From contig OZ024740.1 in NCBI GenBank assembly GCA_964016885.1, forward strand, positions 189,658,001 through 189,722,000: 64,000 nt of DNA, in the 5' to 3' direction. Made by a program: the position numbers and the translations under genes. The notes beneath the pieces were generated by a model, which saw nothing but the letters and a program-made list of their open reading frames with translations, did no database searches and had not been told where the DNA came from. This stretch comes from Eledone cirrhosa (lineage: Eukaryota). Below, piece by piece: positions 19,838 to 64,000 of the stretch (positions are counted from its first letter, which is position 1; the number at the start of each line of letters is the position of its first letter).

Positions 19838-22095
19838 GGAAAATGTTTAACCCCGACAGCAGAGCTCAAGCCGTTTCGACGGCTATTTCTGGACTAAATT
19901 AGAATTTTTAGCGTGGTAATAAATAGCCGAACTTTTCAAGGGGTAATTCCTTATATGGAAAGATAGTAGTTGTCAAAAGGATTGGTCAAAATTTCTTGTA
20001 AATACAATTAAATCTTTCATGGCAGTGGGTGGGAGTGGGGTGGCTGAACTTGACTGTAGAACAATAAGAAAGTGGGTGGAGCCGGTCAAGCGTAGAAAGT
20101 GAATTCTATTCAGCAAATTCTAAGGAGTGTGTATAAAATTAGGCTAGTTAGGAAGCAGGCGAAAAAGGATTCTGCAGGAAATTTAGAGTGGGACGTTATA
20201 GAATTAAAAGGTTAATAAATTGAAATTAAAAAATAATAAATAAAAAAAGGAAAAATAATAAAATTAATTAGTAAAATGTAATGAAAAATTCCCTAGGGTC
20301 TAAAGCAGTTCCTATATTTTTAGTTGGTATTGCGTTTTTGGCCAATGCTATATATAATTTACTGAACTGGGGCTACTGAGGCTACAAAAGCCCGATGGGC
20401 TGCCTCGGGGTAGGCGAGAGAGGAAAAAGGAAAAAGAAGAGGAGAGGGAGTGGAAGGAAGTGATAAGAATAGATAAAGGGGAAAAAGAAAAGAAAAAAAA
20501 AGAAAAGAAGTATATCTACCTATGTAAGCTGGGATTTCACCTATCTTGTTCGGCAATTGGGGAAAAGAAGGATGTGCAGCCATTGTCTACCCACCCGGGT
20601 CATGAGAGGCTTTGGGGGCGAGGTATGTCCTACGCAATAGGTGTTTACATGCAGTTACACGTTCGTCTTTTTCATGTAAGGGTTGGTCCTTCGTAAACAG
20701 CAGTTGTAATGTCCTCCGATCATAAGTTACATGGACGCCGTCCTCCCGTGTATGAGTTAGCTTTGGACAGTGAACTGCAGGTAATATCGTATGTTAAGTT
20801 ATTATCTTAGAGGTCCCAGATGAGGCCCGAAAGTGTAGTAGCATGACGCCGGGCGGGGTTTCGGAATGTATGTCGGTGTTGGTAGAGCCGGGACTTAAAG
20901 TCACAAGCGGTAATTCCTATAGAGGATTTGTTTGAGGTTTCCGTCCTCGCGTTGCATTGGTAGATCACGTTACGTTCCCGGCATCTGTTGTTGAGGGGGA
21001 ACATAGATCAGTCAGGGCAGTTACACATCCTGGTCGGCTCTCCACTAATGTCTAGTTTGTTTCTTCCATAGGGGTTGAGTTTCTTGTTGTTTGAGGAGGC
21101 GATGTTTTGTGCGAAGCTGGGTGTGGTGCTGTAGAAGAGTTTGATAGTGTTTTTGTTGATTATGTTGTGGTAAGGGTGTTGTGGTTGGAAGTGTTTTTTC
21201 GCGGAGCCTAAAGAAGATTTTCCCGATTGGTGTTGCCACCTCGGCCTTGTGGGGAGGGTTGAACCACGTTATGTACCGTGAGCGGCGGCGTCGCCTGCTG
21301 GTTCCGCTAAAGGAAGCTGGATAAAAGAAGATTTCCTCCCGAAAGCCGCTTCGTTTGAGGGCCTGGTTGTAATGAGGCGCATGTTCATCGAATATCTGTT
21401 CATTAGCGGACAAACGAGATATGCGGAGGGAGATGTTTTTAACCAGGTTATTGGTGATGTTTCTAGGATGGTTAGATCGGTGGTGGATGTAGTGAAGTTT
21501 GTCATTTGGTTTCCTGTATGGGTAGTATAGATCATTTTCGAGGTTGAGGGTGACGTCCAGGAAATTGACTCGGGTTAGGGACGTTTGTAGGGTGATTTTA
21601 AATCCTCAGTCCCGGAAGAACTTAGTTGTTGACGGACCAGGTCTATACTACTGGGGTTGTACCCTTTGAGGGTAAGGAGCCCATCGTCTCGTTACAATCC
21701 ACAGCCGAATGCAGGAAACATTTCGGTTAGTTTATATAGTAGGAATAATCCTATAAGATCAGTCAACTCGGCCGAATCGGTCGCGCCCATACTGACGTCG
21801 AAGAGGGAGTCGGGAGCTCTATTTATCCATATGGAATAGTCGAAAAGGAGGAGTATCTTCCTGACGTGGAGAATGATGTTTCTTTCCTGGTCAGTGATGG
21901 TTGTGAGTGTTTTGGCAAAGTCCAAAGCGGCCGTAAGGAGCGGTAAGGTAATAGAGGCCTAATAGCTCTCTATGTCGAATTGGATACATTTGGTGTCCTC
22001 TTTGTCCTCAATAATCCTGAACCATGAGATGATTCCTGGGTGCTGACCCAAAGGTTAAGCCTCGCGTTTTGCTTAAATTTTGGTATAACGCGTTG
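19838..22095 (-). mobile_element. 5'-truncated Penelope-like element (RT plus GIY-YIG, pseudo-LTR with HHR), Hydra-type
   Basis: Minus-strand MGATDSAELTDLIG, RDDGLL, ITWFNPPH, CNCPD...PLNNRC, IGITACDFKSRLYQH; the 3' end abuts (TA)n at ~19812-19837. Confidence 0.88.
19850..19944 (-). ncRNA. Type I hammerhead ribozyme, U3-A8 core variant
   Basis: Minus strand: ACCCC-TTGAAAA-G..CGGCTATTT(loop)AAATAGCCGTC-GAAA-CGGC(ttgagctct)GCTG-TC-GGGGT. Confidence 0.72.
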
Positions 22096-22499
22096 GGACC
22101 CTATTTGCTCATATACGGTGAGATGGGGAGGGCGAGAGAGATGGAGGTGATGACAGTGGGAGATCGGCTGTTCTTTCTTACTCAGGTTACTATTTCCTCT
22201 AAATGTATTTGTGAGTGAATAATGATAAAAAGAACTTTGTAACGCAAACTGGTGCGAAATTTATTATACATATTCACGTGACAGTCATCAACCAACCAAA
22301 TTAGTTTTCTAAAAAACCTAGCATTTCGAGCCACTTTTTTCCACATGAAACAGAAGTAACATTCGAACACCAAAAAGATGCGAGAAAAACCACAAACCCT
22401 CCATCTCAATTCTACTTTTGAAAAAACATAATAACTGTGAAACCGGTAAAGTAAACAAATACATATTCTTAAATGTATATGGTTAAATTCCTTCATAGC

Positions 22500-23822
22500 G
22501 GCGGGGTGCTGGTGCTGAACTGGCCTGTAGAACAAAGGGGAGGGAGTAAGATGACTGTTTGAGCTGTGGGTGCCAAGCCGGTTAGGCGTTAAGAGAGAAA
22601 TCTTGACAACAATCTTTAATAGGGGTAAGACATTAATTTCAGCATTTAAGAATCAAGGAAGGTTGTTATAGTGTAAGTAAATATGCCAAGTCTAACACTT
22701 AGCTAAAGAGCAAAGCATATAGATAGTAATACTAATTAAATCCATAAAAAAGAAATTTAGTTATCAGTAACTCTAATGCACGGGAAGGGCACCTCAATAC
22801 AGTAATTTACTAGTATTTTCTTTTATAAGGATGCAATAAAAAAACATGACTATGTGTTCGGCCGGTTCTATGTATATTTAACAAGAGTGAACATATTCCG
22901 GGTCCACCTAAGGAATAATAAGAACTGATTATAATAATGTAGATATGCAAAGGTCCTCCTAAGTGTAATTAGAGTGTGTAACTAACGAAGAAAAGACACT
23001 ATTTCTAACTAAGTATGCTTGGGGTTTCCTCTATATTAGTTTGTAATTAGGAGGGAGATACAGCCGAGTTCTACCCTCCTCGGTCATGAGGGGGTTCGAA
23101 GTTAAGATACGTGCTATGTATTCTGTGTTTACACGAGGTAACGAGTTCATCTTTTTTGTTTAACAGTTGGTCCTTTGCGAACAGCATTTGGATCGTTTTC
23201 TCAAAGCATAAATTGCACGGATGGCGTCCTCTCGGGCAAGATTGTGCTTTGGAAAGTATGGTCCATCTTAGATGGTAGGTAATATTGTTGTCTTTGAGGT
23301 ACCAAATGTGGACAGAAAGTGCTGTCGTGTGTCGCCGGGCCGGGTTTATAAATGTTTCTTTGTGTTGGTAATACCGGGTCTTAAAATCGCAGGCAGTTAT
23401 TCCGATGCAGGCCTTGTTGGTACTGGTAGACCACGTTTCTTTCTCGGCCTCTATTTTTGAGGGGGCATGATGATCTAACCCGAGAGTTACACCTTCTAAG
23501 GAGAAGTGGTAAAGTGATGGAGGAGTAGTAATTATTGATGTCGTATTGGATAAAACGGCAATGTTCCTTGTTGCATATGCCGTTGACCAATCAATCACCA
23601 CGAAAGAATTGTTCCACAGTGCAAGAGGGGCCAAACTTCTAATTTCAGGTATAATTCTATCAACAATCCTTGTACTAAGTCTACCTAAATCAAACTTCGT
23701 GGGGTTAATAAGCCGAATAAAGGGGTTGTTCGGAAAATTGGATTTGTGATCCTTCAGGGTAAAGTGGGGAGAAATAGCGTTCAGAGGTTCGGTCCGGTCC
23801 AGGATGTTAAGATCAGAGGTGA
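22500..23822 (-). mobile_element. Internally deleted Penelope-like element (RT N-part fused to EN, plus 3' UTR)
   Basis: LINPTKFDLGRLS..IVDRIIP followed by CIGITACDFKTRYYQH...YHLRWTILS...CNLCFE...LLNKKDELVTSCKH; the UTR near 22500-22590 resembles 20020-20100. Confidence 0.8.
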
Positions 23823-62245: not shown

Positions 62246-63183
62246 AAACTGGTTCGAAGATCATACTTTTGGTATTATAGGATCCTTATATCATTTGGTT
62301 TGTTTGCAAGTGTTTGTCTATTTATATCTGCTAGATGTAACGTTAGGATGACATGTTCTGAGCAGTGACATGTGTATAATATTGTGTGTGCGGGTTTGCG
62401 AATTCCCGTCAAGTATTATGAACTTTTTTTTATGTAAATTAATGTCGAATTGTAACCGTTTGAAAATGTTAGGTATTCTGGATTATGTTATGTGTTTGGG
62501 CTGCGTGATGTGCGGGTTTATGTCAATTTTGTTGTGTATAGTTGTATTTCTCTGTTTGAGTTGGCTCTTATACGTGTGTGCTGTACTATCTCAAAAAGTA
62601 CGTGTGCGACTTTTCATCATGCATTGGGGGCTAAGTTTAAAAATGTGGTTGACTTGAGGTTACACTTAGCCGTTAATATTTCTTCTTTGATTCTATGTTC
62701 AAACCTCCGGCTTCAATAGTAACATTCAGGTCTTCGAATTGTTTTTGCTTTTGTCTAAGTGTTTCTAATTGTAGTTATACTCTGAAGAGAACAGGGATTT
62801 CGTCACACTCGTGTATTACAAATACTAGAATCCATCAAGTAACACTCTCAATATCACACGAAGCACTATCACTAGATGGATACAGCCACAGGAATCATGC
62901 AATAATGCAAACCTGTAAATAGTCGGGTGGGTTACAATAGTGGGCTGTTAGAACTCAAGATGGAGAAAAATGAAACATGTTAACAAGACAGATGAGCACA
63001 GCAGGAGGTCAACAACTGGTCATACACACAGACACAAGCAGGGATACTCACAGACACATACACTAGTACAAGCACAGATACACACATATGCCCCCCCCCC
63101 ATATATATACACACACACGCGCACACGCGCGGACACACACACACACACACACATATGTATATTATTATATATATATATATAGG

Positions 63184-64000
63184 TTGTAATAAAATGAAAA
63201 CGAAATTTCATTTCTCACTCTTAGTACGGCACTTACTTAATAAATTCAGGCTGTTCAGTTTGTTTGCAAACGAACAAAGCGGGCGTTATAATAAGCGTCC
63301 GCTAAACTGATACGTACATATACGTATGTGTACCTGAATGTATATATATATATATATATATATATATATATATATATATATATATGCATGCTACTGTACG
63401 TCTGTATACATATATGTATGTACGTATACATACATACTTACATTTAAGTAAGTGCCGTCCTAAGAGTGAGAAATGAAATTTCGTTTTCATTTTATTATAA
63501 CTTATCGTTCTCGGTACGCCTGGCCGAACTCACTCGATATGCAAATTAGGCTGCTCAGCCGTTAATTTTCATAAGGAAAGTATATACTTTCGAACGTTCA
63601 ACCATCTGGCAGAAGGCTATACGGTGCTGATGATAGATAACAAGCTTGAAACTAGTACATCGTTCCTGTGTCAGTGTTGAATAAAAAGGTGACGTGGTTG
63701 CCTTAACAACGTACGGCATAAATTCAGGCTGTTCAGTTTGTTTACAGATGGAAAAAATTGGGCGTTATAATAAGCGTCCGCTAAACTGATACGTACATAT
63801 ATGTCTGCGTACCTGTATGTATATATGTATATATATATATATATATATATATATATATATATATATATATATATATATATATATATATATATATATATAT
63901 ATATATATGTGTGTGCATGCTACTGTACGTCTGTATACATATATGTATGTACGTATACATACATACTTACATTTAAGTAAGTGCCGTACTAAGAGTGAGA
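63184..64000 (+). mobile_element. Diverged relative of the 33953-35008 HHR repeat: short inverted piece plus tandem ~480-bp units running off the window
   Basis: AAATTCAGGCTGTTCAGTTTGTTT at 63242 and 63721; 63184-63240 is the inverse of ~63445-63501. Confidence 0.85.
63621..63663 (+). ncRNA. Minimal type I hammerhead ribozyme
   Basis: ACGGTG-CTGATGA-T-AGAT(aaca)AGCT-T-GAAA-CTAG-TA-CATCGT. Confidence 0.75.

Follow-up and report, generated by a model that had tools for sequence, protein, structure and literature searches.

Hammerhead ribozyme (HHR) motifs are scattered over a 64,000-nt stretch of the Eledone cirrhosa genome (NCBI GenBank assembly GCA_964016885.1, contig OZ024740.1; G000:C1:189658001-189722000, part of a 3.0-Gb assembly; hereafter the window). 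They very probably represent type I hammerheads of (i) the 3' ends of Penelope-like elements (PLEs) and (ii) retrozymes lacking open reading frames (ORFs), the latter likely mobilised by PLEs, with the window as an upper-normal sample. Hammerhead retrozymes and PLEs both sit in (TA)n as two outward-facing arms, one with a short and the other with a long fixed end. The anatomy of the retrozymes may thus be taken as structural evidence for mobilisation by Penelope enzymes.

A sequence-only reading of the window had listed more than 20 HHR motifs, and type I hammerhead sequence is indeed present at 23 of 23 positions. The structural descriptors applied require a core (CUGANGA or UUGANAA), stem II, GAAA, a stem III hairpin or palindrome, UH and a stem I of at least 4 bp; only the second, relaxed one of the two tolerates an unpaired foot of stem II, and retrozymes A and B escape a descriptor demanding a base pair there. 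At least one of the two is satisfied by 17 of the 23 motifs (cores 19939-, 34251-, 34336+, 43655+, 43937-, 46226+, 53998+, 55070-, 57456+ and eight within 57963-60133), that at 43655+ carrying one core deviation (U4C). The other six carry damage, intact members of their families being present elsewhere: stem I lacks its 5' strand at 24138 (deletion of ~19 nt relative to 4 of 4 relatives fetched), the core is changed at 25640 (G5C), stem I is broken at 34766 and 35330, and a mismatch affects stem III at 49778 and stem II at 63627. The core or a known variant of it (U3-A8, U4C) is kept in 22 of 23 motifs, with 25640 as the exception.

The shuffled-sequence control that had been proposed together with the list (here 60 block-wise dinucleotide shuffles) yielded 0.13 strict matches on average and never more than 1, vs. 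14 in the window. One of these 14 (53079) was rejected as probably false, since it belongs to no family; CUGANGA matches at 13200, 38830 and 60823, the last inside a SINE-like repeat, were likewise rejected because stems or family are missing. A decayed inverted pair at 40138-40425 contains hammerhead-like GAAACACGCGTC without matching stem I (40223, inverted partner near 40340) and resembles a decayed two-arm stub. Rfam hammerhead models gave no match at gathering score in the window, and no hammerhead was among the 150 matches listed of 171 at E ≤ 1. In the alignment of family B (42 rows), 94 % of cells are paired (0 of 500 shuffles as high), the covariation resting largely on one stem I pair. 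The distinction of about seven families was borne out, the count rising to eight with a previously missed decayed copy at 22418, and the five palindromes named are all present. The description as TA-flanked islands also holds, 16 of 17 listed coordinates being located at most 300 nt from (TA)≥5 vs. 43.6 % for positions drawn at random from the span. Family C motifs (19850, 43849, 46221, 49773) combine a U3-A8 core with a stem III of 5 bp; with a monomer stem III of this length, a partner may be unnecessary.

Families C, F1 and G are assigned to Hydra-type PLEs, as indicated by their protein motifs. Remnants of PLE ORFs are located at 10983, 22036-20723, 23820-23122, 41138-41572, 44711-45040, 46494-48640 and 51775-53032, and those in the window stop 0.9-2.1 kb upstream of same-strand hammerheads of C, F1a and G. 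Overall, the distance from the end of a PLE ORF to the hammerhead downstream of it amounts to 0.7-2.4 kb in F1, C, G, F11 and F19, and ORFs for reverse transcriptase (RT) plus endonuclease precede four of the hammerhead families that occur in the window (C, F1, G, F6). The frameshifted C, F1 and G remnants align along the whole of their relatives P0010/P0019, with the YIG motif in C-terminal position; Pfam gave no match on the frameshifted PLE pieces. RWR and DKT were recognised in the family C copy, the CxCx5C linker at 41121 and 52500 (its last C replaced by F in the family C copy), as well as CNLC (CxLC). In case of F6, the hammerhead is located 1,066 nt behind an RT plus GIY-YIG ORF at locus L023 (RVT_1 and GIY-YIG matches). 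Reading this single locus by eye against the Neptune criteria (DKG, Cx2-5CxxC linker, C-terminal GIY-YIG) suggests a Neptune-like ORF, the link to F6 coming from one locus. Family G displays U4C in 100 of 100 copies listed among 3,271. U4C is described as a slow but viable and U3-A8 as an active hammerhead variant (PMC3088659). In family G, the slow variant is fixed across a large number of natural copies.

The retrozyme units are ORF-free and tandem (A, 310 nt; B, 403-497 nt) with one type I hammerhead each, and no PLE ORF was located in front of A or B anywhere in the 1.39 Mb of sampled tiles (see below) plus the window. Their predicted circular folds have minimum free energies with z = -3.8 (A) and -5.1 (B) vs. 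40 shuffles. Thus, A and B fit the non-LTR (long terminal repeat) retrozymes as described in PMC7229834. Retrozymes A (57796-60267) and F8 (L121:6093-6412) have 178 nt in common at 77 % identity around both end sites, their hammerheads being different. Together with the resemblance of the A hammerhead to that of F2, this suggests exchange of the ribozyme module.

The insertion anatomy is shared by PLEs and retrozymes. Downstream of the cut site, (TA)≥5 is reached within 250 nt in 238 of 296 motifs vs. 20 % of random sites. Neighbouring motifs of the same family form 57 outward-facing vs. 13 inward-facing pairs, and outward pairs join one short and one long end, at +17/+97 in family C (13 of 16) and at ~+45/+135 in F1 (10 of 10); the corresponding positions are ~+77/+140 in F6 and ~+212/+263 in retrozyme B. 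Short and long family-specific ends are 33-90 nt apart. The ends of retrozyme A (+130/+163-168) recur in nine of nine two-arm arrays with both ends visible, and retrozyme B has a short and a long end in seven of seven readable among 11 loci fetched, the A and B loci having been picked from lists mostly for showing two strands; arms on both strands are present in 9 of the first 10 A loci listed. At ten A arm junctions, the arms overlap by 1-4 nt in six cases and are separated by an insert of 2-4 nt in two, one junction being complex and one unmeasurable. In run X3, contigs pass into stretches of TA at each of the two family C ends. Symmetric ends for A, B and F6 were considered and rejected as an artefact of internal (AT)n runs. 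In the first 18 Mb of contig C1, a C locus is located no more than 1 kb away from 6 of 41 B loci, compared to an expected 0.44; at distances of up to 20 kb, the numbers are 19 of 41 vs. 6.8. An inverted truncated copy with a one-sided tail is a described signature of PLEs (PMC8557442), and a lizard PLE protein was reported to cut and extend both strands and to initiate at a pair of neighbouring internal sites (PMC11167929).

The short end of A (57796-57805) coincides with AUAUAUAU internal to the unit. AT-rich template bases follow the ends of B (34920-35010), F1 and F6, which may let a nicked (TA)n primer anneal.

An ecosystem of autonomous PLEs and non-coding ribozyme repeats in (TA)n, as proposed from sequence, is therefore supported by ORFs upstream of four families, two ORF-free families and the co-clustering of B with C. 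This mixture is the state of the whole genome and of a system already described. The "extraordinary" ribozyme density attributed to the window was not borne out, since the 23 motifs amount to 11 insertions, with eight motifs in a single array of 310-bp units. Homology counts, seeded with 90 descriptor matches from tiles and flanks and none from the window, yielded 22 motifs at 9 loci from 7 families in the window, compared to 11.6-12.1 motifs (p = 0.086) and 6.9-7.3 loci (p = 0.25) per 64 kb in 119 evenly spaced 10-kb tiles (round coordinates, large contigs only). Six contiguous 60-kb control windows contain 17, 7, 29, 7, 12 and 17 motifs at 10, 6, 18, 5, 10 and 12 loci from 5, 5, 8, 3, 8 and 9 families, respectively; scaled to 60 kb, the corresponding numbers for the study window are 20-22, 8-9 and 7, respectively. 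Its 63-72 (TA)≥6 runs are below every control window (87-215).

Genome-wide searches with exact patterns retrieved 78,192 complete-core motifs, namely 4,226 for A, 26,952 for B, 12,942 for F6, 30,741 for the F1 clan, 3,271 for G and 60 for H, and the 3' half of family C gave a further 40,663 matches; reversed-pattern controls gave 0 for every pattern. The descriptor matched 73 times in the 119 tiles vs. 1.7 times in shuffles, i.e., 61 per Mb (bootstrap 40-86), corresponding to ~1.8x10^5 intact motifs genome-wide (1.2-2.6x10^5). With no palindrome demanded by the search, 37 of 43 tile matches still proved to be perfect palindromes. The 90 matches from tiles and flanks sort into 24 families, and repeats of the 1.39-Mb sample from the same genome cover no less than 52 % of the window. 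Thus, the window lies within the upper normal range of a genome with hammerheads throughout rather than being a special hotspot, and with the genome alike throughout, local hotspot status is of no importance.

According to the proposed mechanism, the GIY-YIG endonuclease would nick both strands of (TA)n, and the RT would prime one cDNA per nick, using two fixed positions on the RNA that follow the ribozyme on its downstream side, whereupon the arms would meet through microhomology. Every insertion would leave ribozymes on both strands as well as fresh TA flanks that may recruit later insertions. By virtue of the palindromic stem III, neighbouring units are predicted to fold as a double hammerhead and to cut multimeric transcripts to monomers. 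By analogy with tested retrozymes, these monomers would be ligated to circles, resist cleavage as monomers and be copied round into arrays; for the axolotl retrozymes, multimers were reported to be cut to monomers, with circles spared (PMC7229834). The lowest-energy fold computed for two A units is a double hammerhead, the monomer circle forming stems I and II only, and two B units as well as the A, B, C and F1a homodimers are likewise predicted to fold as double hammerheads. None of the six sequencing runs listed is from RNA. Runs X1 and X2 contain a circular contig, which tandem DNA would yield in the same way. Stray fragments of PLEs ending in TA, consistent with traces of genomic DNA, are present in X1, X2 and X6, rendering these runs uninformative on expression or between-species spread.

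Several observations weigh against catalytically processed, PLE-mobilised retrozymes and against the window being ordinary. Homodimers of F1b and G are not predicted to fold as double hammerheads, a U-U mismatch is located at the foot of stem II in both retrozymes A and B, and eight of nine Xenopus retrozyme dimers remained uncleaved in a recent preprint (10.64898/2026.07.22.740005). The 5' arm ends do not pile up at the cut: of 85 family C arms, 3 have their end no more than 4 nt from it, compared to 56 with an end in stem II, 26-45 nt further on. In diverged subfamilies, some of the latter mark where the alignment stops, but ten stubs inspected represent true junctions. RT run-off at the ribozyme cut was therefore discarded as unsupported. 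Templates must have been either uncut or ligated again, and insertion may not need the ribozyme, as reported in vitro for the lizard PLE (PMC11167929). Furthermore, the A array of the window is one-armed, and no sequence link was found between A or B and the PLE ends compared, except for a 28-nt hammerhead match of A to F2. With respect to density, the tiles are not a random draw, and the strict intact count in the window (13 vs. a mean of 3.9; top control window 11) is elevated at p = 0.014, the excess dropping to p = 0.23 once the array counts as one.

The arm ends devoid of any trace of cut ends would also suit motifs that are mostly non-catalytic and either serve the PLE RNA as signals for protein binding or folding or represent relics. 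PLE hammerheads reportedly cleave poorly in vitro (PMC4209133), U-U, C-A or A-G pairs occur at the stem II base in several families, and U4C is fixed in family G. However, the core is kept in at least 24 families with a compensating C3-G8/U3-A8 switch and palindromic stem III, and the two variants are known as active (U3-A8) or slow (U4C), as cited above. A mostly non-catalytic nature is thus unlikely, even if it can be partly true alongside PLE-driven mobilisation. Alternatively, PLE end fragments inserted a single time could have expanded in place into satellite arrays through unequal crossing-over, without involvement of a mobile retrozyme RNA. Such a scenario is discussed in the above preprint, and the one-armed, 99-100 % homogeneous A array in the window would agree with it. 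It is nevertheless quite improbable, since dispersed A arrays have the same 310-nt unit, fixed ends and tandem units on both arms, and A and B were in no case located behind a PLE ORF in the sampled tiles and the window; an array once inserted may later have expanded locally.

The sequence-only reading further suggested that family-specific palindromes could restrict dimeric cleavage to self partners. Among 171 pairs from 19 families, 157 are unable to pair in stem III, 14 can do so and just 5 of these also form a stem I of at least 4 bp. Most cross pairs are thereby excluded, and the predicted gain of retrozyme A is -6.1 kcal/mol when paired with its own kind, as opposed to ~0 when paired with five other families. 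To this extent the palindromes do differ by family, but identical ones recur across families (ACTAGT in F0 and F5, ACAATTGT in F17 and F20, ATATGTAT in F15 and F21), and the F1 clan combines cross-pairing palindromes on one stem I, the predicted pairing of F1a with F1b (-9.3) exceeding that of F1b with itself (-3.7). A restriction to self partners is therefore weakly supported. As stem I is also exchanged in the double hammerhead, any specificity rests on stems I and III together; moreover, partners that are neighbours on one transcript need no code, and drift alone would diversify short palindromes. A special hotspot of competing RNAs with palindromes as self-recognition code, although favoured by the strict intact count and by the low number of compatible pairs, is very improbable in view of control windows with up to 29 motifs, 18 loci and 9 families. 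Chance matches in AT-rich, repeat-rich DNA or assembly artefacts (fold-back reads, duplicated unit) might be considered, given that no Rfam family matched at gathering score and that chimeric reads can yield inverted arms. With 0.13 matches in shuffles and none for reversed patterns vs. thousands of matches, this is already refuted for the motifs, and the fixed difference between the two ends of an insertion, together with head-to-tail units and both C ends in contigs of other runs, leaves it a negligible probability overall.

Hammerhead-bearing elements in the window (positions from the first nucleotide of the 64,000-nt stretch; cores with strand sign where given)
Element	Positions	Strand	Hammerheads and other features	Ends
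5'-truncated PLE, family C, diverged subfamily	19838..22092	-	RT and endonuclease remnants 22036-20723; core 19939 (U3-A8); predicted cut after 19855	(TA)n end 17 nt on
Family F6, decayed 3' stub	22230..22466	+	ACCGGT, U3-A8, core 22418; overlooked in the sequence-only reading	
Family H repeat, direct repeat of period 468	23859..24400	+	core 24138, ACCGCGGT; defective, stem I 5' strand deleted	
Family F9 stub	25494..25685	-	core 25640, G5C, ACCACTGGT; defective	
Retrozyme B, two-arm insertion, unit 430 nt	33958..35010	both	34251- intact, 34336+ intact, 34766+ stem I mismatch	left long, right short, each at (TA)n
F1 clan, decayed stub	35129..35392	-	core 35330 intact, stems broken	
Family C, two-arm stub	35422..35529	both arms	tail sequence only, no ribozyme core	
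5'-truncated PLE (Hydra-type by motifs), family G	41121..43732	+	endonuclease 41138-41572 with CxCx5C; core 43655 (CCGAAGA), ACAATTGT	
PLE (Hydra-type by motifs), family C, two-arm	43838..49949	+	inverted arm 43838-44735 with hammerhead 43937-; hammerhead 46226+ in pseudo-LTR; RT-endonuclease ORF ~46494-48640, frameshifted; hammerhead 49778+ in 3' repeat (mismatch in stem III)	short (inverted arm), long (3' repeat)
5'-truncated PLE (Hydra-type by motifs), family F1a	51668..54089	+	ORF remnants 51775-53032; core 53998, ATGCGCAT	short (+43) at (TA)n
F1b, two-arm stub	54292..54564	both arms	two hammerheads, each reduced to its 3' half	
F1b, two-arm insertion of PLE 3' ends	54886..57553	both	55070-, 57456+, ATATGTAT	long (+136) at 55070-, short (+50) at 57456+
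Retrozyme A, eight ORF-free 310-nt units	57796..60267	-	ACGCGT; one hammerhead per unit; predicted cuts after 57933, 58243 ... 60103	single arm, short (+130) at (TA)n
Retrozyme B subfamily	63182..64000	+	short inverted arm 63182-63305, then tandem arm; hammerhead 63627+ (stem II mismatch)	

Six of the eight units in the retrozyme A array are identical, the outer two differing at 1 and 5 places. The tandem arm of the retrozyme B subfamily runs past the window edge, and three further cores are present in L023. Two-arm PLE stubs of 100-270 bp are frequent and often have no full ribozyme (35422-35529 and 54292-54564 in the window; L059, L067, L089). They are similar to miniature inverted-repeat elements and might be mistaken for DNA transposons during annotation.

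Further repeats in the window include small TA-flanked hairpin elements without hammerhead core (54637-54861, 57630-57728; several copies in the sample) and a TA-flanked two-arm element at 24642-25434 (arms 24782-24989 and 25228-25434, 93 % alike), in which no hammerhead was detected. A degenerate Helitron with a PIF1 helicase remnant is located at 13333-17198, and another Helitron in L030. Two related copies of a long interspersed nuclear element (1564-4203 and 29345-32301) are 73 % alike, the former retaining a 777-codon RT/zf-RVT frame. A high-copy repeat at 60657-60870 resembles a short interspersed nuclear element and has a tRNA-like start and a chance-looking CTGACGA; ARAGORN detected no tRNA in it. 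No host exon was found in 264 kb, a weak test in which 80 of 128 candidate non-repeat ORFs were scanned and which short or AT-rich exons would escape. The scan gave two matches, both to transposon domains, the other 48 ORFs having been set aside by eye as, or as overlapping, Helitron or PLE pieces. In Xenopus, 42-44 % of retrozymes are reported to be intronic, with mild depletion (preprint 10.64898/2026.07.22.740005). As a two-arm insertion puts a ribozyme on the sense strand in either orientation, a simple test for sense-strand depletion in introns is blunted.

Many of the individual traits are already in print, i.e., many families per genome, palindromic stems, U3-A8 cores, opposite-strand pairs, dimer cleavage, (TA)n targeting and PLE origin. 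The Hydra-clade PLEs described by Craig et al. 2021 (PMC8557442) share the C-terminal endonuclease, RW[K/R], DKT, the CxCx5C linker and hammerheads, as well as (TA)n insertion, the inverted 5'-truncated copy and the one-sided tail; in contrast, they are described as few families with tails of 30-40 bp. The metazoan non-LTR retrozymes of Cervera and de la Pena 2020 (PMC7229834) agree in their ORF-free tandem units of 300-490 nt, low GC content, one type I hammerhead per unit, a short palindromic helix III needing dimers and co-existence with PLEs, the U-U at the helix II base being the same as in axolotl HHR_Amex2. Two-arm inverted arrays, one-sided tails and (TA)n targeting are not described in the accessible text of that article; conversely, circular RNA was demonstrated there and is a prediction for the present retrozymes. 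Its reported counts are >6000 in coral, ~5000 in mussel and 126,247 in axolotl, compared to the ~1.8x10^5 estimated here for 3.0 Gb with another descriptor.

The minimal PLE hammerheads of Cervera and de la Pena 2014 (PMC4209133) share many families per genome, palindromic helix III, U3-A8, opposite-strand pairs 100-700 bp apart and a majority of copies from truncated PLEs, while reported numbers are in the thousands per genome (2,000 + 1,300 in Schistosoma, 4,000 in coelacanth, 9,000 in Xenopus). Li, Clavereau and Pollet 2026 (bioRxiv 10.64898/2026.07.22.740005) likewise propose retrozymes of PLE origin moved by PLE machinery. Their evidence comprises co-occurrence and pseudo-LTR phylogeny in vertebrates, as opposed to insertion anatomy in another genome here, and the terms "tail" and "target site" do not occur in the accessible main text. 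Poseidon PAc of Anolis (Frangieh et al. 2024, PMC11167929) shares cutting and extension of both strands, uncut RNA as the main template and two adjacent internal RT start sites that set the tail; it differs in belonging to another clade, in its AT-rich rather than (TA)n target and in a ribozyme overlapping the ORF start. Neither two-arm tailed retrozyme insertions nor a census this high per Mb were found in the open-licence literature, preprint supplements excluded; with descriptors differing between studies, the per-Mb comparison is rough.

On balance, we lean towards placing E. cirrhosa in the hammerhead-densest class of animal genomes (~10^5 intact motifs, at least 24 families, none Rfam-detected in the window), with retrozymes bearing the full Penelope signature, PLE enzymes that prime two cDNAs, and priming module and ribozyme being exchangeable. 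The value of the finding lies in this genome-wide system rather than in the window. It bears on two questions posed in the literature, namely which enzyme moves animal retrozymes and how the inverted and tailed insertions of PLEs form, and the young, near-identical A arrays with their base-exact end sites are ready substrates for PLE RT in vitro.

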